Shown piece after piece: positions 29,807 to 40,129 of a stretch of 44,891 nucleotides of DNA (within the stretch, counting starts at the first letter, position 1; each line of letters opens with the position of its first letter). Below the pieces are notes generated by a model. It made no database searches, had not been told where the DNA came from, and saw only the letters and a list, made by a program, of their open reading frames with translations. Position numbers and translations under genes: made by a program. The stretch comes from a virus (Duplodnaviria; Heunggongvirae; Uroviricota; Caudoviricetes): IMG/VR virus record IMGVR_UViG_2802429240_000008; one strand, written 5' to 3'.

Positions 29807-30144
29807 CGCGGGAAATGCAGTTTGTCATGCGGCTTGCCCGGGAGTTCCGGCGGGCAGACTGGCGGCGGATGCTGTCGGAAATGTCGGCCACTGAGCTTGG
29901 TGAGTGGGGCGATTATTTCCGGATGCAGAGCTTCAGTGATGTGTGGATGGATGCGCAGTTTGCCTCGCTGAAGGCATTGATCGTGAGAATGGTGTCCGGT
30001 AGCAGTGATGCTGCGGTGGCTGATTTCAGCCTTTTACCGGAAGAGAACGGGATACCGGAGCGAACGGACGAAGAACTGATGCATCTTGGGGAAGGTATTT
30101 CCGGAGGTGTGCGTTATGGACCAGATAGCCAACCTGGTCATTGA
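29791..30144 (+). CDS. T: T frame of the tail assembly chaperone; expected to be made only as a G-T fusion by -1 programmed frameshift near 29794-29800
   Basis: The ORF in the -1 frame opens at 29791, just before the G stop at 29804-29806; GGAAAAG lies at the G/T junction; conserved G-T arrangement in lambdoid tails. Confidence 0.7.
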   Translation, partial: AGKVLTREMQFVMRLAREFRRADWRRMLSEMSATELGEWGDYFRMQSFSDVWMDAQFASLKALIVRMVSGSSDAAVADFSLLPEENGIPERTDEELMHLGEGISGGVRYGPDSQPGH

Positions 30145-33100
30145 TTTGGGGATTGATGCGGCAGAGTTTAAAAATGAAATCCCCCGTATCAAAAACCTTC
30201 TGAATGGTGCAGCCAGCGATGCAGAACGGTCTTCTGCCCGTATGCAGCGTTTTATGGAGCGTCAGACTCAGGCCGCCCGGCAGACAACGCAGGCGGCTTC
30301 TTCGGCTGCAACAGCCGCATCCGTCCATGCGCAGACGGTGGAGAAGAACGCACAGGCTCATGAACGCATGGCCCGCGAGGTGGAGAAAACCCACCAGCGC
30401 ATGGAGGCGCTGAGCCAGAAAATGCGCGAGGAACAGGCGCAGGCCATGGCTCTGGCGGAGGCTCAGGATAAAGCGGCTGCTGCGTTTTATCGTCAGATTG
30501 ACAGTGTGAAACAGGCCAGTGCGGGGCTGCAGGAATTACAGCGTATTCAGCAGCAGATCCGACAGGCCAGAAACAGTGGCGGGATTGGTCAGCAGGATTA
30601 TCTGGCGCTGATTTCTGAGGTTACTGCGAAAACCCGTGTTCTTACACAGGCTGAGGAAGAGTCTACCCGACAGAAAGTGGCGTTTATCCGTCAGCTTAAA
30701 GAGCAGGCAACCCGCCAGAATCTTTCTTCTTCTGAGTTGCTTCGTGCTAAGGCTGCCCAACTGGGGGTAAGCAGTGCTGCAGAAGTGTATATCCGCAAAA
30801 TGGAGCAGGCAGGAAAAGCCACGCATTCGCTGGGTCTGAAAAGTGCAGCGGCCCGCCAGGAGATAGGCGTTCTGATAGGTGAACTGGCCCGCGGCAATTT
30901 AGGTGCGCTGAGGGGATCCGGGATAACGCTGGCTAACCGTGCCGGATGGATAGACACACTGATGTCACCGAAAGGCATGATGCTGGGCGGGGTTATTGGC
31001 GGTATTGCCGCGGCCGTCTATGGTCTGGGTAAAGCCTGGTATGACGGTCAGAAGGAGGGGGAAGAATTTAACCGCCAGTTGTCGCTGACGGGGCATTATG
31101 CCGGAGTCACTGCCGGGCAACTGTGGACGCTCAGTCGTGCTATTTCCGGGAATGGTATCACGCAACATGCTGCAGCCGGTGCGCTGGCTCAGGTGGTGGG
31201 GAGTGGTGCATTTCGTGGAAACGATATCGGTATGGTGGCGAGAGCTGCCGCACAGATGGAGCGATCGGTTGGCCAGTCGGTCAGCGATACCATAAGTCAG
31301 TTTAAGCGGCTGAAGGATGATCCTGTAAATGCCGCGAAGGCTCTGGACAATGAGCTGCATTTTCTTACTGCCACTCAGCTTGAGCAGATACGCGTCCTTG
31401 GGGAGCAGGGGCGGTCCAGTGATGCTGCACGGATAGCCATGTCTGCACTGGCAGAGGAAACCGATCGTCGTACTGCGGATATTGATAATAACCTCAATGC
31501 GCTGGGTAGCACGCTGCAAACCTTGTCTGACTGGTGGAAGCAGTTCTGGGATGCGGCCATGAATATTGGTCGTGAAGACTCGCTGGATGAACAGATTGCC
31601 GCTTTACAGGAGAAAGTGTCGCGGGCGAAAAGACTCCCCTGGACGGCATCATCTTCTCAGGTTGAATACGATCAGCAGCGTCTTAACGATCTTCAGGAGA
31701 AAAAACGCCAGAAGGATTTGCAGGATGCAAAAGAGCAGGCAGAGCGGAATTATCAGGAGCAACAGAAACGCCGTAATGCTGAAAATGCTGCACTGAACCG
31801 GATGAATGAAACGGAAGCAGCACGGCATCAGCGTGAAATTGCGCGTATTAATGCCATGCAGTACGCCGATCAGGCTGTCAGGGATGCGGCGATACAACGT
31901 GAAAATGAACGTTACGAGAAAGCCCTGGCATCCGGTAAGAAAAAAACACGCGAAACCCGTAATGATGAGGCCACCCGGTTATTGCAGCAGTACAGTCAGC
32001 AACAGGCACAGGTGGAAGGGCAGATTGCTGCTGCAAGACAGTCAGCAGGCATTGCCACTGAAAAGATGACAGAAGCGCATAAACAGCTTCTGGCTCTGCA
32101 GCAGCGCATCAGCGACCTGGACGGGAAAAAACTGACGGCAGATGAAAAGAGTGTGCTTGCCCGTAAAGATGAACTGATTCAGGCATTGACGCTGCTGGAT
32201 GTAAAACAGCAGGAGCTTCAGAAACAGACGGCACTCAACGAGCTGAAGAAAAAAACAATTCAGCTGACCAGTCAACTGGCTGAAGAAGAGCGCGCTCAGC
32301 GTCAGCAACATGACCTGGATATCGCCACGGTGGGTATGGGTGATCAGCAGCGGCAGCGATATCAGGTACAACTGAGTCTTCGCCAGAAATACCAGCAACA
32401 GCTGGAGCAGTTGAGGCGGGATAGTGAGCAGAAAGGGACATATAACACGGATGACTACAGAAAGGCCGAGCAGGCGCTGACGGAGAGCCTGAACCGACAA
32501 CTGAATGAGAATCGCCGTTACTGGCAACAGCTTGAAATTGCTCAGGGTAACTGGAAAAACGGTGCCATGCGGGCGTTTCAGAATTTCACGGCAGATGCGG
32601 ATAATGCGGCAGGCACTGCTGAGCAGATGCTTACAGCGGCATTTAACAGTGCAGGTAATGCACTGGCAACCTTCTGTACCACCGGAAAACTGAACTTCAA
32701 ATCTTTTACCGCCTCGCTCCTTTCTGATCTGGCAAAAATCATGGCCCAGATGTCCATGATGCAGGCAGTTAAGGGGATTGGTTCGGCGTTTGGCTGGGGG
32801 AGTGCAGCAACTGCCAGTGTGACGCCCAATGCTGATGGTGGTGTTTATCAGTCTGCTGATTTGAGTCGCTACAGTGGCACGGTGGTTAACCGTCCGACGT
32901 TTTTTGCTTTTGCAAAAGGTGCAGGTGTGATGGGGGAAGCTGGGCCTGAAGCCATTCTGCCTCTGCGTCGTGGTGCTGATGGTAAGCTGGGGGTTGTGGC
33001 GGATATTGGTGGTTCAGGTATGGCGATGTTTGCCCCGCAGTACAACATTGAGATCAAGAACGATGGCACGAACGGGCAGATAGGTCCGGCTGCCCTGAAG

Positions 33101-33190
33101 GTGGTTTATGACCTCGGGAAAAAAGCAGCAGCGGACTTTATGCAACAGCAGTCCCGTGATGGTGGTCTGTTCTCCGGAGGTGGACGATGA
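30116..33190 (+). CDS. H: Tail tape measure protein H (1024 aa)
   Basis: ATG at 30116 with GGAGG RBS; very long predicted helical, Ala/Gln/Glu/Arg-rich protein; C-terminal Gly-rich region; position between G-T and M. Confidence 0.9.
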   Translation: MDQIANLVIDLGIDAAEFKNEIPRIKNLLNGAASDAERSSARMQRFMERQTQAARQTTQAASSAATAASVHAQTVEKNAQAHERMAREVEKTHQRMEALSQKMREEQAQAMALAEAQDKAAAAFYRQIDSVKQASAGLQELQRIQQQIRQARNSGGIGQQDYLALISEVTAKTRVLTQAEEESTRQKVAFIRQLKEQATRQNLSSSELLRAKAAQLGVSSAAEVYIRKMEQAGKATHSLGLKSAAARQEIGVLIGELARGNLGALRGSGITLANRAGWIDTLMSPKGMMLGGVIGGIAAAVYGLGKAWYDGQKEGEEFNRQLSLTGHYAGVTAGQLWTLSRAISGNGITQHAAAGALAQVVGSGAFRGNDIGMVARAAAQMERSVGQSVSDTISQFKRLKDDPVNAAKALDNELHFLTATQLEQIRVLGEQGRSSDAARIAMSALAEETDRRTADIDNNLNALGSTLQTLSDWWKQFWDAAMNIGREDSLDEQIAALQEKVSRAKRLPWTASSSQVEYDQQRLNDLQEKKRQKDLQDAKEQAERNYQEQQKRRNAENAALNRMNETEAARHQREIARINAMQYADQAVRDAAIQRENERYEKALASGKKKTRETRNDEATRLLQQYSQQQAQVEGQIAAARQSAGIATEKMTEAHKQLLALQQRISDLDGKKLTADEKSVLARKDELIQALTLLDVKQQELQKQTALNELKKKTIQLTSQLAEEERAQRQQHDLDIATVGMGDQQRQRYQVQLSLRQKYQQQLEQLRRDSEQKGTYNTDDYRKAEQALTESLNRQLNENRRYWQQLEIAQGNWKNGAMRAFQNFTADADNAAGTAEQMLTAAFNSAGNALATFCTTGKLNFKSFTASLLSDLAKIMAQMSMMQAVKGIGSAFGWGSAATASVTPNADGGVYQSADLSRYSGTVVNRPTFFAFAKGAGVMGEAGPEAILPLRRGADGKLGVVADIGGSGMAMFAPQYNIEIKNDGTNGQIGPAALKVVYDLGKKAAADFMQQQSRDGGLFSGGGR

Positions 33191-33516
33191 AAACCTTCCG
33201 CTGGAAAGTGAAACCCGGTATGGATGTGGCTTCGGCCCCTTCCGTAAGAAAGGTGCGCTTTGGTGATGGCTATTCTCAGCGTGCGCCTGCCGGGCTGAAC
33301 GCTGACCTGAAAACGTACAGCGTGACGCTTTCTGTTCCCCGCGAGGAGGCCACGGCACTGGAATCGTTTCTGGCTGAGCACGGGGGCTGGAAGGCCTTTC
33401 TGTGGACGCCACCTTATGGCTACCGGCAGATAAAGGTGACCTGCGCAAAATGGTCGTCGCGGGTCAGTATGTTGCGTGTTGAGTTTAGCGCAGAGTTTGA
33501 ACAGGTGGTGAACTGA
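33187..33516 (+). CDS. M: Minor tail protein M
   Basis: 109 aa, same length and position as lambda M; start overlaps the H stop. Confidence 0.85.
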   Translation: MKTFRWKVKPGMDVASAPSVRKVRFGDGYSQRAPAGLNADLKTYSVTLSVPREEATALESFLAEHGGWKAFLWTPPYGYRQIKVTCAKWSSRVSMLRVEFSAEFEQVVN

Positions 33517-34214
33517 TGCAGGATATCCGACAGGACACACTGAATGAATGCACCCGTGCGGAGCAGTCGGCCAGCGTGGTGCTCTGGGAAATCGATCTGA
33601 CAGAGATCGGTGGAGAACGTTATTTTTTCTGTAATGAGCAGAACGAAAAAGGTGAGCCGGTCACCTGGCAGGGGAGACAGTATCAGGCGTATCCCATTCA
33701 GGGGAGTGGTTTTGAACTGAATGGCAAAGGCACCAGTACGCGCCCCACGCTGACGGTTTCTAACCTGTACGGTATGGTCACCGGGATGGCGGAAGATCTG
33801 CAGAGTCTGGTCGGCGGAACGGTGGTCAGGCGTAAGGTTTATGCCCGTTTTCTGGATGCGGTGAACTTCGTCAACGGAAACAGCGAAGCCGATCCGGAGC
33901 AGGAGGTGATCAGCCGCTGGCGCATCGAGCAGTGCAGCGAACTGAGCGCGGTCAGTGCCTCCTTTGTGTTGTCCACGCCGACGGAAACGGATGGTGCCGT
34001 TTTTCCGGGGCGCATCATGCTGGCCAACACCTGCACCTGGACCTATCGCGGTGATGAGTGCGGTTATCACGGTCCGGCTGTCGCGGATGAATATGACCAG
34101 CCGACGTCCGATATCACGAAGGATAAATGCAGCAAATGCCTGAGTGGCTGTAAGTTCCGCAATAACTTCGGCAACTTTGGCGGCTTCCTTTCCATTAACA
34201 AACTTTCGCAGTAA
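33516..34214 (+). CDS. L: Minor tail protein L
   Basis: 232 aa, same size and position as lambda L; conserved C-terminal Cys cluster (CTWTYRGDECGY...CSKCLSGC). Confidence 0.85.
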   Translation: MQDIRQDTLNECTRAEQSASVVLWEIDLTEIGGERYFFCNEQNEKGEPVTWQGRQYQAYPIQGSGFELNGKGTSTRPTLTVSNLYGMVTGMAEDLQSLVGGTVVRRKVYARFLDAVNFVNGNSEADPEQEVISRWRIEQCSELSAVSASFVLSTPTETDGAVFPGRIMLANTCTWTYRGDECGYHGPAVADEYDQPTSDITKDKCSKCLSGCKFRNNFGNFGGFLSINKLSQ

Positions 34215-34219
34215 ATCCC

Positions 34220-34963
34220 ATGACAGAGACAGAATCAGCGATTCTGGCGCACGCCCGGCGATGTGCGCCAGCGGAGTCGTGCGGCTTTGTGGTGAGAACG
34301 CCGGAGGGGGAAAGATATTTTCCCTGCGTGAATATCTCCGGTGAGCCGGAGGATTATTTCCGGATGTCGCCGGAGGACTGGCTGCAGGCAGAGATGCAGG
34401 GTGAGATTGTGGCGCTGGTCCACAGTCATCCCGGTGGGCTGCCCTGGCTGAGTGAGGCAGACCGGCGGCTGCAGGTGCAGAGTGATTTGCCGTGGTGGCT
34501 GGTCTGCCGGGGGGCGATTCACAAGTTCCGCTGTGTGCCGCATCTCACCGGGCGGCGCTTTGAGCACGGGGTGACGGACTGTTACACGCTGTTCCGGGAC
34601 GCTTACCATCTGGCGGGGATTGAGATGCCGGATTTTACGCGGGAGGATGACTGGTGGCGTAACGGTCAGAATCTCTATCTGGATAATCTGGAGGCCACGG
34701 GGCTGTATCAGGTGCCGTTGTCATCAGCACAGCCGGGCGATGTGCTGTTGTGCTGTTTTGGTTCATCGGTGCCGAATCATGCCACCATTTACTGTGGTGA
34801 CGGCGAGCTGCTGCACCATATTCCTGAACAACTGAGCAAACGAGAGAGGTATACCGACAAATGGCAGCGACGCACACACTCCCTCTGGCGTCACCAGGCA
34901 TGGCACGCATCTGCCTTTACGGGGATTTACAACGATTTGGCCGCCGCGTCGACCTTCGTGTGA
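34220..34963 (+). CDS. K: Tail assembly protein K (MPN/JAB and NlpC/P60-like motifs)
   Basis: HSHP...SEAD (JAB-like) and a C/H pair typical of NlpC/P60; 3' end overlaps I. Confidence 0.85.
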   Translation: MTETESAILAHARRCAPAESCGFVVRTPEGERYFPCVNISGEPEDYFRMSPEDWLQAEMQGEIVALVHSHPGGLPWLSEADRRLQVQSDLPWWLVCRGAIHKFRCVPHLTGRRFEHGVTDCYTLFRDAYHLAGIEMPDFTREDDWWRNGQNLYLDNLEATGLYQVPLSSAQPGDVLLCCFGSSVPNHATIYCGDGELLHHIPEQLSKRERYTDKWQRRTHSLWRHQAWHASAFTGIYNDLAAASTFV

Positions 34964-35502
34964 AAACGGGAGCCGAAGCCATCCGGGCGCTGGCCACGCA
35001 GCTACCGTCGTTTCGCCAGAAACTGAATGAGGGCTGGTATCAGGTGCGCATTGCCGGGCGTGATGCAGGCGAAAACGAATTATCTGCCCGTCTTAATGAG
35101 CCGCTGGCAAATGGTGCCGTGATCCACATCGTACCGCGTCTGGCGGGTGCCAAAAGTGGCGGTATTTTTCAGGCAGTGCTGGGTGCGGCGCTAATTGCTA
35201 CGGCAATCTGGATGCCGGGGCTTAGTATTGTTGCAAGTAATCTCATGTTCTCTCTTGGGGCAGGTATGGTTTTAGGCGGTGTTGCGCAGATGCTGGCACC
35301 GAAAGCCAAAACGCCTAAAGTGTCAGCCACTGATAACGGTAAGCAAAATACCTATTTTTCCTCATTGGATAACATGGTTGCCCAGGGCAATGTCCTGCCT
35401 GTTCTGTACGGTGAAATGCGCGTGGGGTCACGTGTGGCATCTCAGGAGATCAGCACGGCAGATGAAGGGGATGGTGGTCAGGTTGTGGTAATTGGGCGGT
35501 AA
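34861..35502 (+). CDS. I: Tail assembly protein I
   Basis: MAATHTLPLASPGMARICLYGDLQRFGRRVDLRVKTGAEAIRALATQLP... and C-terminal ...YGEMRVGSRVASQEISTADEGDGGQVVVIGR parallel lambda I as I recall it. Confidence 0.85.
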   Translation: MAATHTLPLASPGMARICLYGDLQRFGRRVDLRVKTGAEAIRALATQLPSFRQKLNEGWYQVRIAGRDAGENELSARLNEPLANGAVIHIVPRLAGAKSGGIFQAVLGAALIATAIWMPGLSIVASNLMFSLGAGMVLGGVAQMLAPKAKTPKVSATDNGKQNTYFSSLDNMVAQGNVLPVLYGEMRVGSRVASQEISTADEGDGGQVVVIGR

Positions 35503-35574
35503 TATTATTTACTCATGTTCTAACTGATTTAATATTTATATCGAACACTGATAATTATTCTGTTGGTTAGCTAT

Positions 35575-35913
35575 ATGAACAAAACGATTTTATTCTGCAC
35601 GATTATTGCCTTAACAGGATGTAAATCTTTGGATTACGTAAAATCCGGCAAGCCTGTAATGGAAGGTAATTCATTAAAAAATATTGATGAATTGTCAGGC
35701 TGCATATCCAGACAATGGGCTGGTAATGGAACACCTATAACATCCATTCCTATTGAGAATGGGGTAAGCCTTTTAGTTCCACAGGCTATGGGTGGGTATG
35801 ATGTTGTGCTTGATATCAAAAAAGCAGGAAATGGCAGTAGTTTTACTCTTTATGAACGCGTACCAGCATTAACGCCAAAAATTTTTGCTGATAGTGTTAA
35901 TGCATGTAAATAA
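35575..35913 (+). CDS. Moron lipoprotein (112 aa) inserted between I and J
   Basis: Signal peptide with lipobox (MNKTILFCTIIALTGC); AT-rich gene with upstream TTTAAT-N16-GATAAT promoter-like sequence and its own downstream terminator. Confidence 0.65.
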   Translation: MNKTILFCTIIALTGCKSLDYVKSGKPVMEGNSLKNIDELSGCISRQWAGNGTPITSIPIENGVSLLVPQAMGGYDVVLDIKKAGNGSSFTLYERVPALTPKIFADSVNACK

Positions 35914-35937
35914 TAGTTAATCCTGCCGTAACTCATG

Positions 35938-35964
35938 AGCCGCCTTTTGGGCGGCTTTGTTGTT
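35938..35964 (+). terminator. Rho-independent terminator after the lipoprotein moron
   Basis: agccgcc-tttt-gggcggct followed by ttgttgttt. Confidence 0.7.
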
Positions 35965-35979
35965 TATGGAGTGTGAGGA

Positions 35980-38900
35980 ATGGGTAAAGGTAGCAGTAAG
36001 GGGCATACCCCGCGCGAAGCGAAGGACAACCTGAAATCCACGCAGCTGCTGAGTGTGATCGATGTCATCAGCGAAGGGCCGATTGAAGGTCCGGTGGATG
36101 GGTTAAAAAGCGTGCTGCTGAACAGTACGCCGGTGCTGGACAGTGAGGGGAATACCAATATCTCCGGTGTCACGGTGGTGTTCCGGGCAGGTGAGCAGGA
36201 GCAGACTCCGCCGGAGGGGTTTGAATCCTCCGGCTCCGAGACGGTGCTGGGTACGGAAGTGAAATATGACACGCCGATAACCCGCACCATCACGTCGGCA
36301 AACATCGACCGTCTGCGTTTTACCTTCGGTGTGCAGGCACTGGTGGAAACCACTTCAAAGGGTGACCGGAATCCGTCGGAAGTTCGCCTGCTGGTTCAGA
36401 TACAGCGTAACGGTGGCTGGGTGACGGAAAAAGACATCACCATTAAGGGCAAAACCACCTCGCAGTATCTGGCCTCGGTGGTGGTGGATAACCTGCCTCC
36501 GCGCCCGTTCAATATCCGGATGCGCAGGATGACACCGGACAGCACCACAGACCAGCTGCAGAACAAAACGCTCTGGTCGTCATACACCGAAATCATCGAT
36601 GTGAAACAGTGCTACCCGAACACGGCACTGGTCGGCGTGCAGGTGGACTCGGAACAGTTCGGCAGCCAGCAGGTGAGCCGTAATTATCATCTTCGCGGGC
36701 GCATTCTGCAGGTGCCGTCGAACTATAACCCGCAGACGCGGCAATACAGCGGTATCTGGGACGGAACGTTTAAGCCAGCATACAGCAACAATATGGCCTG
36801 GTGTCTGTGGGATATGCTGACCCACCCGCGCTACGGCATGGGGAAACGTCTTGGTGCGGCGGATGTGGACAAATGGGCGCTGTATGTCATCGGCCAGAAT
36901 TGCGACCAGTCGGTGCCGGACGGTTTTGGTGGCACGGAGCCGCGCATCACCTGTAATGCCTGGCTGACCACACAGCGTAAGGCGTGGGATGTGCTCAGCG
37001 ATTTCTGCTCGGCGATGCGCTGTATGCCGGTATGGAACGGGCTGACGCTGACGTTCGTGCAGGACCGACCGTCGGATAAGGTGTGGACCTATAACCGCAG
37101 TAATGTGGTGATGCCGGATGATGGCGCGCCGTTCCGCTACAGCTTCAGCGCCCTGAAGGACCGCCATAATGCCGTTGAGGTGAACTGGATTGACCCGGAT
37201 AACGGCTGGGAAACGGCAACAGAGCTTGTGGAGGACACGCAGGCCATTGCCCGTTACGGTCGTAACGTCACGAAGATGGATGCCTTTGGCTGTACCAGCC
37301 GGGGACAGGCACACCGCGCCGGGCTGTGGCTGATTAAAACGGAGCTGCTGGAAACGCAGACCGTGGACTTCAGCGTGGGCGCAGAAGGGCTTCGCCATGT
37401 ACCGGGTGATGTCATTGAAATCTGTGATGATGACTATGCGGGGATCAGCACCGGCGGGCGCGTGCTGGCGGTGAACAGCCAGACCCGGACGCTGACGCTC
37501 GACCGTGAAATCACGCTGCCATCCTCCGGTACCACGCTGATAAGCCTGGTTGACGGAAGTGGCAATCCGGTCAGCGTGGAGGTCCAGTCCGTCACCGACG
37601 GCGTGAAGGTAAAAGTGAGCCGTGTTCCTGACGGCGTTGCAGAATACAGCGTGTGGGGGCTGAAGTTGCCGACGTTGCGCCAGCGCCTGTTCCGCTGTGT
37701 GAGTATCCGTGAGAACGATGACGGCACGTATGCCATCACTGCCGTGCAGCATGTACCGGAAAAAAAAGCCATCGTGGATAACGGGGCGCACTTTGACGGC
37801 GACCAGAGCGGCACGGTGAATGGTGTCACGCCGCCAGCGGTGCAGCACCTGACTGCCGAAGTCACCGCAGACAGCGGGGAGTATCAGGTACTGGCCCGCT
37901 GGGACACGCCGAAGGTGGTGAAGGGCGTGAGTTTCCTGCTTCGCCTGACCGTGGCAGCGGATGACGGCAGTGAGCGGCTGGTCAGCACGGCCCGGACGGC
38001 GGAAACCACATACCGCTTCAGGCAGCTGGCGCTGGGGAACTACAGGCTGACAGTCCGGGCGGTAAATGCGTGGGGACAGCAGGGCGATCCGGCATCGGTA
38101 TCGTTCCGGATTGCCGCACCGGCAGCGCCGTCTCGGATTGAGCTGACACCGGGCTATTTTCAGATAACCGCCACGCCGCATCTTGCGGTTTATGACCCGA
38201 CGGTACAGTTTGAGTTCTGGTTCTCGGAAAAACGGATTGCGGATATCAGGCAGGTTGAAACCACAGCCCGCTATCTTGGCACGGCGCTGTACTGGATAGC
38301 TGCCAGTATCAATATCAGGCCGGGCCATGATTATTATTTTTACGTTCGCAGTGTGAACACCGTTGGCAAATCGGCATTCGTGGAGGCTGTTGGTCAGCCG
38401 AGTGATGATGCTTCCGGCTATCTGGATTTTTTCAAAGGAGAGATAGGGAAAACCCATCTGGCTCAGGAGCTGTGGACGCAAATTGATAACGGTCAGCTTG
38501 CGCCTGACCTGACTGAAATCAGGACGTCCATTACGGATGTCAGCAATGAAATCACGCAGACTGTCAATAAGAAACTGGAAGACCAGAGTGCGGCAATCCA
38601 GCAGATACAGAAGGTTCAGGTTGATACAAATAATAACCTGAACAGCATGTGGGCTGTGAAGATGCAGCAGGTGCAGGACGGACGCCTTTATATCGCGGGC
38701 ATCGGTGCCGGTATTGAGAATACGCCAGCAGGAATGCAGAGTCAGGTGCTGCTGGCGGCAGACAGGATTGCGATGATTAATCCTGCGAATGGCAACACAA
38801 AGCCGATGTTTGTTGGTCAGGGCGATCAGATATTCATGAACGAAGTGTTCCTGAAATATCTGACGGCTCCCACCATTACCAGCGGCGGTAATCCTCCGGC

Positions 38901-39462
38901 ATTTTCCCTGACACCGGACGGGCGGCTGACGGCGAGAAATGCTGATATCAGCGGTAACGTGAATGCGAACTCCGGGACGCTCAACAACGTCACGATAAAT
39001 GAGAACTGTCAGATTAAGGGGAGACTGTCAGCCAACCAGATTGAAGGCGATATTGTCAAAACGGTCAGCAAGTCTTTCCCCCGCACGAGCACTTATGCCA
39101 GCGGCACCATCACGGTAAGAATCAGTGATGATCAGAAATTTGATCGGCAGGTCATGATACCGCCAGTGTTGTTCCGTGGTGGTAAGCATGAGAATTTCAA
39201 CAGTAATAACCAACAGTCATACTGGTATTCAACCTGCCGGTTAAGAGTGACCCGCAATGGTCAGGAGATTTTTAATCAGTCCACGACGGATGCTCAGGGC
39301 GTATTTTCCTCGGTTATAGATATGCCTGCCGGACAGGGGACGCTGACACTGACATTCACCGTATCTTCATCAGGAGCGAATGACTGGACACCAACAACCA
39401 GTATCAGTGATCTGCTGGTTGTGGTGATGAAGAAATCCACAGCAGGTATCAGTATCAGCTGA
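35980..39462 (+). CDS. J: Central tail fibre / host specificity protein J (1160 aa)
   Basis: Size and position as lambda J; N-terminal two-thirds has the conserved tip-attachment architecture, C-terminal region divergent; GAGGA RBS. Confidence 0.9.
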
Positions 39463-39480: not shown

Positions 39481-39507
39481 GGCGTCAGAAATGACGCCTT
39501 TTTTTAT
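39481..39507 (+). terminator. Rho-independent terminator after J
   Basis: ggcgtca-gaaa-tgacgcc followed by ttttttt. Confidence 0.7.
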
Positions 39508-39529
39508 CGCAGAAAAGCGAGAGGTACTT

Positions 39530-40129
39530 ATGCGTAAACTTTATGCCGCCATTTTGTCCGCAGCCATTTGTCTGGCCGTATCCGGTGTGCCTGCATGGGC
39601 GTCTGAACATCAGTCCACGCTGAGCGCGGGGTATCTTCATGCCCGGACCAACGTTCCCGGCAGCGATGATCTGAACGGGATTAACGTGAAATACCGTTAT
39701 GAGTTTACGGACACACTGGGGATGGTGACGTCATTCAGCTATGCAGGAGACAAGAATCGCCAGCTTACCCGTTACAGCGATACCCGCTGGCATGAAGATT
39801 CCGTGCGTAACCGCTGGTTCAGCGTGATGGCGGGGCCGTCTGTGCGCGTGAATGAATGGTTCAGCGCGTATGCGATGGCGGGTATGGCTTACAGCCGTGT
39901 GTCGACTTTTTCCGGGGATTACCTCCGCGTAACTGACAACAAGGAGAAAACGCACGATGTGCTGACCGGAAGTGATGACGGTCGCCACAGCAACACGTCT
40001 CTGGCGTGGGGGGCTGGCGTGCAGTTTAACCCGACCGAATCCTTGGCCATTGATATTGCTTATGAAGGTTCCGGCAGTGGTGACTGGCGCACTGACGGTT
40101 TCATCGTGGGTGTCGGTTATAAATTCTGA
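39530..40129 (+). CDS. lom: Lom-like outer-membrane beta-barrel protein (Ail/Lom/OmpX family)
   Basis: [41 protein letters not shown]...[10 protein letters not shown]: signal peptide, alternating beta-strand pattern, C-terminal aromatic; appears nearly identical to lambda Lom from memory. Confidence 0.9.

Follow-up and report, generated by a model that had tools for sequence, protein, structure and literature searches.

Why does a small, AT-rich lipoprotein gene sit inside an otherwise GC-rich and tightly coupled lambda-type tail operon, and what might it do there? The question is raised by the IMG/VR virus record IMGVR_UViG_2802429240_000008 (Caudoviricetes), whose 44,891 nucleotides (nt) of DNA, hereafter the window, were analyzed. 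In the window, the gap between tail assembly gene I and the tip attachment and host-specificity gene J spans 477 nt and holds one open reading frame (ORF), which encodes a lipoprotein of 112 amino acids (aa). We are highly confident in the anatomy of this cassette and of its lipoprotein. For the role of the lipoprotein we infer, tentatively, that it works at the cell envelope against incoming phages, by a route other than the masking of a matched receptor.

A lipoprotein cassette between tail genes I and J

The ORF opens with MNKTILFCTIIALTG, which runs up to the cysteine predicted to carry the lipid. A first-pass annotation, made from the nucleotide sequence alone, had described a 112-aa lipoprotein with an LTGC lipobox between tail genes I and J, and the analysis confirms both the protein (lipobox L13-T14-G15-C16) and its position, with Pfam identifying Lambda_tail_I on the left and GpJ on the right, the latter through matches to FNIII-A_GpJ, Phage-tail_3, Ig_J, Phage_Tail_Tip, and Ig_GpJ_C. 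A complete lambda-type tail-tip gene block, each gene of which is confirmed by Pfam, lies on the + strand of the window (Table 1), and its genes are packed tightly, H/M, M/L, and K/I abutting or overlapping. The ORF has a GC content of 0.369 and a GC content at third codon positions (GC3) of 0.265, against GC contents of 0.555 in I and 0.561 in J and a GC3 of 0.668 in J. The earlier description of an AT-rich insertion in a GC-rich, tightly coupled operon is therefore accurate, and the deviant nucleotide composition that belongs to the definition of a moron (in the sense of Juhala and Hendrix, as quoted in PMC3594210) is present.

The limits of the insertion become clear on comparison with lambda. 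The alignment of gene I stops at its stop codon, the insertion begins directly after it, and identity resumes from a hairpin onward into J, so that the lambda gap measures 60 nt and the window carries ~417 nt of extra DNA. An empty lambda-type I-J junction was found in 4212 of 5426 complete Escherichia coli genomes, while the gene itself is present in 337 of the 5426 (~6%; 349 places, 95–100% DNA identity), including O104:H4, O55:H7 CB9615, NU14, and ST95 strains. A megablast search with the cassette against 50,697 isolated phage records gave no match, and relatives of the lipoprotein were found in just two of these records compared with 6% of the complete E. coli genomes; the family is nearly restricted to prophages. 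The designation as a moron in the first-pass annotation is supported by this extra DNA relative to lambda and to the empty E. coli junctions, by the foreign composition, and by the occurrence of the family in four slots, described below.

The ORF is real. Across 55 E. coli loci (18 haplotypes), its coding region contains 11 synonymous and 5 non-synonymous variable sites, which indicates purifying selection. In two RefSeq records, the locus tag of the gene falls outside the numerical series of its neighbors (G2583_RS31645 at L099 1776-2114; B0908_RS26255 at L100 1546-1884), which suggests that the first annotators probably overlooked the gene and that it was entered afterwards. Disrupted copies were also observed, one of them apparently frameshifted (L066 7001-7338) and the other reduced to residues 54-112 at ~830 nt before J (L075 212-388).

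A family catalogued as PHROG 914

The first-pass annotation could name no family for the protein, and the searches agree with it. Scans of the lipoprotein found no family in Pfam at E values up to 10 and no match in NCBIfam or PADLOC, a Pfam scan of 60 relatives gave no match, neither to Lambda_Bor (PF06291) nor to Ail_Lom (PF06316), and a sequence-profile search of the PDB returned matches to the signal peptide only and no relative. A weak VirB7 match, which likewise covers only the signal peptide, was rejected. The one family matched is PHROG 914, a group without assigned function; the whole lipoprotein (residues 1-112) aligns to all 118 profile positions (1-118) with E = 5.7e-33, and this entry is the sole cataloguing of a family that has never been studied. 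Homology to a virion or tail protein, which the first-pass annotation had set against an accessory role, was looked for in Pfam, PHROGs, NCBIfam, the PDB, and BFVD, and none was found.

A profile search recovered ~80 clusters at 90% identity in Enterobacterales, and the family divides into two subfamilies that are ~30% identical to each other: A, which contains the window protein, and B, which is Fraca-like. An exhaustive search yielded 116 clusters at 50% identity, nearly all of them lipoproteins of ~112 aa; one candidate from a representative search (P0093, 1047 aa) was discounted, as it looks like a low-complexity repeat protein and has no lipobox. Three cysteines, Cys16 of the lipobox, Cys43, and Cys111, are invariant across the family, and the residue at position +2 after the lipid-modified cysteine is never Asp. 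Bacterial lipoproteins of this kind are exported by Sec, acted on by Lgt and Lsp at the lipobox cysteine, and sorted by Lol to the outer membrane unless the +2 residue is Asp. Because this residue is Lys in the window protein, not Asp, the Lol rule predicts anchoring in the outer membrane.

The lipoprotein does not follow the receptor-binding domain of J

The first-pass annotation had suggested that the lipoprotein masks an outer-membrane receptor in the manner of Cor and Llp. The genes of known masking lipoproteins adjoin that of the receptor-binding protein and follow the J homologue, and the lipoproteins match its receptor (PMC8594841, PMC11990801, PMC11893012). T5 Llp binds and jams FhuA from the periplasm (PMC9586334; PDB 8a60), and among the lipoproteins tested in mEpimmI phages, Lpp021 excludes OmpA users and Lpp010 excludes LamB users (PMC11893012). 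We compared the last 125 aa of J, which Pfam recognizes as the receptor-binding domain, between the window and 32 E. coli loci whose J is complete. These domains form four clusters that are 20–58% identical to one another and 19–41% identical to lambda, and in every one of the clusters the lipoprotein differs by 0–2 residues from that of the window, the frameshifted copy in L066 apart. The tape measure proteins (H) of the lipoprotein loci are either 25% or 98% identical to that of the window. The lipoprotein is uncoupled from both the receptor-binding domain of J and the tape measure.

Further observations point in the same direction. In sequence and profile comparisons with Cor (PHROG 1119), Llp (8a60), and Lpp010, no homology was detected outside the signal peptide, the Llp match being limited to residues 1-20 (E = 0.89) and the Lpp010 match to residues 3-16; the mEpimmI lipoproteins, which have the signal peptide alone in common with the family, were rejected as members of it. 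The gene lies upstream of J and not beside the receptor-binding domain, and phage Fraca carries a member of subfamily B together with a bona fide cor (PHROG 1119, E = 6.8e-34). A matched receptor mask is unlikely, since the same lipoprotein accompanies four types of J domain, its gene precedes J, and Fraca has cor as well; the Cor/Llp-like proposal is not supported by these comparisons. Exclusion by another route would be plausible. As for the receptor of the window prophage itself, comparison with lambda (L093) shows ~96–100% identity of its J as far as residue ~800, after which (window 38400-39462) identity falls, to 28–45% in the receptor-binding domain, and because of this divergence the prophage probably uses a receptor other than LamB.

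Four slots in lambda-type tail operons

In the genome and IMG/VR contexts of Enterobacterales, every member of the family is found in a lambda-type tail operon, on the same strand as the tail genes and in one of four slots. The I-J slot is that of E. coli, with >50 loci. The K-I slot is used by both subfamilies, by A in Klebsiella and its relatives and by B in E. coli, Enterobacter, Citrobacter, Atlantibacter, and two phages, Fraca and LMessi; many of its copies start 33–45 nt after K with a good Shine-Dalgarno sequence and no promoter-like site. Enterobacter members use the T-H slot, where the first moron to be described, HK97 gene 15, is also located (PMC3594210). In Klebsiella oxytoca, the gene follows J (L102/L103 4001-4339) as the last prophage gene, preceded by a J of 3749 aa, a hairpin, and an AT-rich spacer of 120 nt, and different chromosomal genes lie downstream at the two loci; this is the slot where a promoter of its own would be most needed. 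Occupancy of four slots, together with the usual hairpin, supports the moron reading, and the behavior of the family fits moron cargo recruited from a host lipoprotein family.

The K-I slot gathers other cargo as well. Several unrelated lipoprotein genes of unknown function stand there in tandem with the family member (Table 1), namely PHROG 2320 in Fraca and LMessi, a YecR-like gene (PF13992) in two metagenome contigs, and PHROG 3152 in L067. In other loci, as much as 4 kb of regulatory-type genes interrupts the tail operon at this slot; among their products are antirepressor-like proteins (KilA-N, Bro-N, and ORF6N), Arc-like and helix-turn-helix proteins, and a small membrane protein (PHROG 12304). 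In Fraca, the annotated start of VUF53266 (L001 5725-5994) looks miscalled, since the reading frame continues upstream and there encodes a signal peptide with a lipobox (MRKFLSILACSLIIVGC), the form already annotated in LMessi.

Promoter-like matches and a shared hairpin

The first-pass annotation had assigned the cassette a promoter-like sequence and a terminator of its own. The former finds no support, as a sigma-70 scan of the region returned no + strand promoter at threshold and a total count below the shuffle mean. With a looser scan, the best match was TTAATA (35529), a short spacer of 15 nt, and GATAAT (35550), agreeing at 9 of 12 positions, and several matches reached 8 of 12, for example TTTACT (35508) and TAATAT (35530) separated by 16 nt. 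These matches are no better than chance in a spacer with a GC content of 0.24.

The terminator is a more nuanced case. The hairpin downstream of the ORF is real, with 9 pairs (6 of them G-C) and a regional folding energy of −21.6 kcal/mol (z = −4.15), and its T-tract is interrupted (TTTGTTGTTTAT). The alignment shows a homologous hairpin, AAACCGCC-TGCG-GGCGGTTTTGTCATTT, in the gene-free 60-nt I-J gap of lambda, and because of it the terminator-like element at this slot is, to judge from sequence comparison, not specific to the cassette. The lambda hairpin may be the relic of a lost cassette, or it may be a resident terminator upstream of which cassettes land. In the T-H, K-I, and I-J slots alike, the stop codon of the family member is followed by a hairpin and T-run and then by the ribosome-binding site of the next tail gene, and pairing is kept while the stems vary (GCCGCC/GGCGGC, CCCGC/GCGGG, CCCGTC/GACGGG, and GCCACC/GGTGGC). 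Behind the post-J copy of K. oxytoca, the one hairpin present is weak and its T-run poor. An Rfam scan of the region gave no match near threshold.

Predicted structure

AlphaFold2, run on an alignment of 54 sequences, predicts a compact alpha/beta domain (predicted local distance difference test [pLDDT] = 88.1, predicted template modeling score [pTM] = 0.78) in which the lipid anchor is followed by a short helix, a strand, a helix, four strands, and a helix. Foldseek against the PDB ranked the Francisella lipoprotein Flpp3 (PDB 6pny, 2mu4, and 9nlt) first, and this match is weak (E = 0.011, template modeling score 0.51); KA1, DUF302, and BamC-N domains score similarly, and the fold matches share 6–12% sequence identity with the lipoprotein. 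A Pfam scan of the protein and its relatives found no match to DUF3568, the family of Flpp3, whose own function is unknown. In BFVD, the best match was an uncharacterized Pseudomonas phage protein (E = 1.3e-5). By these matches, the protein belongs to a widespread class of alpha+beta folds that several small lipoproteins share; they show a common class of fold and not homology.

Proposed role and its alternatives

The explanation that we favor, as a whole and with some reserve, is that of a moron lipoprotein acting at the envelope as a conversion factor that hinders incoming phages. A cassette of ~420 nt would have been acquired horizontally and inserted directly after the stop codon of I, upstream of a pre-existing hairpin before J. 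The pre-lipoprotein would be exported by Sec, processed by Lgt and Lsp between LTG and C16, and delivered by Lol to the inner leaflet of the outer membrane, leaving an alpha/beta domain of 97 aa in the periplasm, where a disulfide might link the two invariant residues Cys43 and Cys111. The gene would certainly be transcribed with the antiterminated late tail operon, and there may be a lysogen transcript that starts at a weak promoter in the AT-rich spacer and ends at the hairpin. Since antiterminated transcription ignores terminators, the retention of the hairpin suggests a separate transcript. As a lysogenic-conversion factor, the lipoprotein would act at a step independent of the receptor-binding domain of J, by a logic nearer to the post-adsorption block of HK97 gp15 or Ltp than to the matched receptor mask of Cor or Llp. 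Such a role is favored because of the near-restriction of the family to prophages, the retention of the hairpin, the precedents of gp15 and Ltp, and the strict association with the M-L-K-I-J genes. Some anti-phage role may quite possibly exist, and we regard it as a nearly balanced question; a post-adsorption role independent of the receptor is more doubtful.

Several observations weigh against this explanation. The evidence for a promoter is at chance level, and upstream of the subfamily-B copies that start 33–45 nt after K no promoter match of at least 7/12 was found, which may restrict these copies to late expression. As for the fold, its matches are generic and give no function, all sources name the protein "hypothetical," and a literature search found no paper on the PHROG 914 family. 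Genomes that bear the gene hold 1–6 lambda-type I-J junctions, and some of these genomes have 2–3 copies of the gene, which implies that exclusion of lambda-type tails, if any, is not absolute. Finally, distant relatives exist outside phages, for example on a Pseudomonas chromosome and in a pond metagenome-assembled genome (a single 3.6-kb contig), and the ancestral role was therefore probably a host envelope function.

The same distant chromosomal relatives are what a host-fitness or virulence moron of the Bor or Lom type would lead one to expect, that is, a gene conferring serum resistance, stress tolerance, or adhesion. Such a role would also suit the presence of the gene in the pathogen lineages named above, the Lom gene directly after J in the same prophage, and the nearest solved fold, since Flpp3 was deposited as a "virulence determinant." We consider it unlikely, as all enterobacterial members examined lie within or at the end of lambda-type tail operons, which is odd for a generic host factor, no other moron sites or phage types occur among them, and neither Lambda_Bor nor any other Pfam family is matched. 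A Cor/Llp-type mask, which would bind an outer-membrane receptor from the periplasm and make it unusable by the prophage's own and related phages, is quite unlikely. It would accord with a predicted outer-membrane lipoprotein inside a tail operon, with the tested precedents of Llp on FhuA (PMC9586334) and of Lpp021 and Lpp010 against OmpA and LamB phages (PMC11893012), and with the cor-like position after J in the K. oxytoca lineage. Besides the missing homology and the co-occurrence with cor in Fraca, it has to contend with a mature domain of 97 aa against ~55–65 aa in the known masks, and with one lipoprotein (0–2 aa differences) shared by four receptor-binding domain clusters where known masks are adjacent and matched to the receptor-binding protein (PMC8594841, PMC11990801). 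The lipoprotein could still mask the receptor of other phages.

That the gene is a late lytic accessory, made with the tail proteins and acting at lysis, for example to keep progeny off debris or to adjust the envelope, is improbable. The gene is always on the strand of the late operon, many K-I copies follow K closely with a good Shine-Dalgarno sequence and no promoter-like site, and a role in keeping debris from capturing progeny has been proposed for Cor and Llp (PMC11990801). Yet three of the four slots have a hairpin after the gene whose pairing is kept despite differing stems, the family appears in just 2 of 50,697 isolated phage records, and debris protection would need a matching to the receptor-binding domain that is not seen. 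Selfish or decaying passenger DNA without current function, to which the frameshifted and truncated copies in L066 and L075 might point, is hardly credible in view of purifying selection within E. coli, three cysteines invariant over 116 clusters at 50% identity, a confidently predicted fold (pLDDT 88), and 337 complete genomes that carry the gene at 95–100% DNA identity. Roles as a spanin, a tail chaperone, or a structural protein were rejected on position and export signal, and the cleavable lipoprotein signal peptide argues against assembly into tails in the cytoplasm.

A further reading can also be formulated, in which the family would be a periplasmic inhibitor of the immunity type, directed at some conserved component of the lambda-type tail tip that reaches the periplasm during infection. 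Its target may be the JAB and NlpC/P60 peptidase gpK, the C-terminus of the tape measure, or gpI. Parallels exist in T4 Spackle, which acts against the gp5 lysozyme, and in the immunity proteins of type VI secretion systems, which act against NlpC/P60 amidase effectors. This proposal derives from the position of the gene directly after K in most lineages, its occurrence with the M-L-K-I-J module only, and the lack of coupling to the J domain; it is speculative, and we regard it as very improbable. If true, it would mean a receptor-independent cross-exclusion of lambda-type siphophages.

Comparison with known systems

A close parallel is HK97 gp15 (Juhala et al. 2000; Cumby et al. 2012; PMC3594210), likewise a small cassette for an envelope protein, foreign in composition and oriented like the lambdoid tail genes among which it lies. 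Enterobacter members of our family occupy the same T-H slot, and both families have chromosomal non-phage relatives. HK97 gp15 excludes phages without touching the receptor, and both its expression in the lysogen and its exclusion are proven (PMC3594210); it differs in being a YebO-like inner-membrane protein, not a lipoprotein, and has no sequence relation to the family. Ltp of Streptococcus phage TP-J34 (PMC3952083) is, as proposed here, a prophage lipoprotein with a globular extracytoplasmic domain, and it confers superinfection exclusion. It differs in its Gram-positive host and in its unrelated sequence. Ltp probably blocks DNA injection and not adsorption, and its gene belongs to the lysogeny module, not to a tail operon.

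Cor (of phi80, N15, and T1) and T5 Llp share with the window protein a lipobox, a location in the tail or host-recognition region, and a predicted periplasmic position with outer-membrane anchoring, whereas the window lipoprotein is larger, has another fold, is encoded upstream of J, and is uncoupled from the type of receptor-binding domain. Lpp021 and Lpp010 of mEpimmI phages (PMC11893012) are also lipoproteins from the structural cluster of temperate coliphages with lambda-type K-I-J genes, but they measure 72 and 82 aa, their genes come immediately after J on the other strand, and they are matched to users of OmpA or LamB. Lambda Bor and Lom are, like the present gene, morons of lambdoid phages for outer-membrane proteins, and Lom directly follows J in the window; the lipoprotein matches neither in Pfam, Lom being a beta-barrel and Bor a different small lipoprotein.

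Features of the locus

The coordinates on which these comparisons rest are collected in Table 1. Not AT-rich at a GC content of 0.54, the Ail/Lom gene after J adds another envelope moron to this tail region.

Table 1. Coordinates of the lipoprotein cassette, its neighbors in the window, and related loci elsewhere
Feature	Position	Strand	Remarks
H (tape measure)	30086-33190	+	Pfam
M	33187-33516	+	Pfam
L	33516-34214	+	Pfam
K (JAB + NlpC/P60)	34220-34963	+	Pfam
Tail assembly gene I	34861-35502	+	Pfam Lambda_tail_I, E = 1.3e-23; left flank
Spacer, 72 nt, AT-rich	35503-35574	+	GC 0.236; weak Shine-Dalgarno, marginal sigma-70-like matches only
Lipoprotein ORF	35575-35913	+	112 aa + stop; signal peptide = codons 1-15; predicted mature protein of 97 aa from Cys16 (+2 = Lys)
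Lipobox LTGC codons	35611-35622	+	L13-T14-G15-C16
Conserved Cys43 codon	35701-35703	+	
Conserved Cys111 codon	35905-35907	+	
Hairpin and T-run	35937-35967	+	G+C-rich hairpin 35937-35957, then interrupted T-run; terminator-like
Shine-Dalgarno region of J	35968-35979	+	GGAG...GAGGA; common to lambda (alignment)
Tip attachment / host-specificity gene J	35980-39462	+	Right flank; receptor-binding domain residues 1037-1160
Ail/Lom gene	39491-40129	+	Pfam E = 2e-119; directly after J
Lambda I-J gap with hairpin	L093 2446-2505 = NC_001416 15445-15504		Compare window 35937-35979
K-I tandem lipoprotein loci	L001/L002 5647-6336; L104/L105 3582-4342; L067 6971-7855; L101 3603-4336		
K-I regulatory-cargo loci	L067 3045-6970; L068 6247-6912; L090 6184-6992; L106/L107 1400-3900		

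Significance for lambdoid prophages

Envelope-lipoprotein morons in lambdoid tail operons are a kind already known, while the family described here is new to study. It is also widespread, with ~6% of complete E. coli genomes carrying the gene and relatives common in the prophages of Klebsiella, Enterobacter, and Citrobacter. Whatever the function of the protein, the comparison is of use, since it follows one cargo gene, usually with a hairpin, across four slots of a conserved tail operon, and this movement, together with a K-I slot that gathers unrelated lipoprotein genes, makes a clear example of how morons move. If the lipoprotein does block entry independently of the receptor, it would represent a new class of exclusion factor, with a bearing on host range in phage therapy and on competition among prophages.

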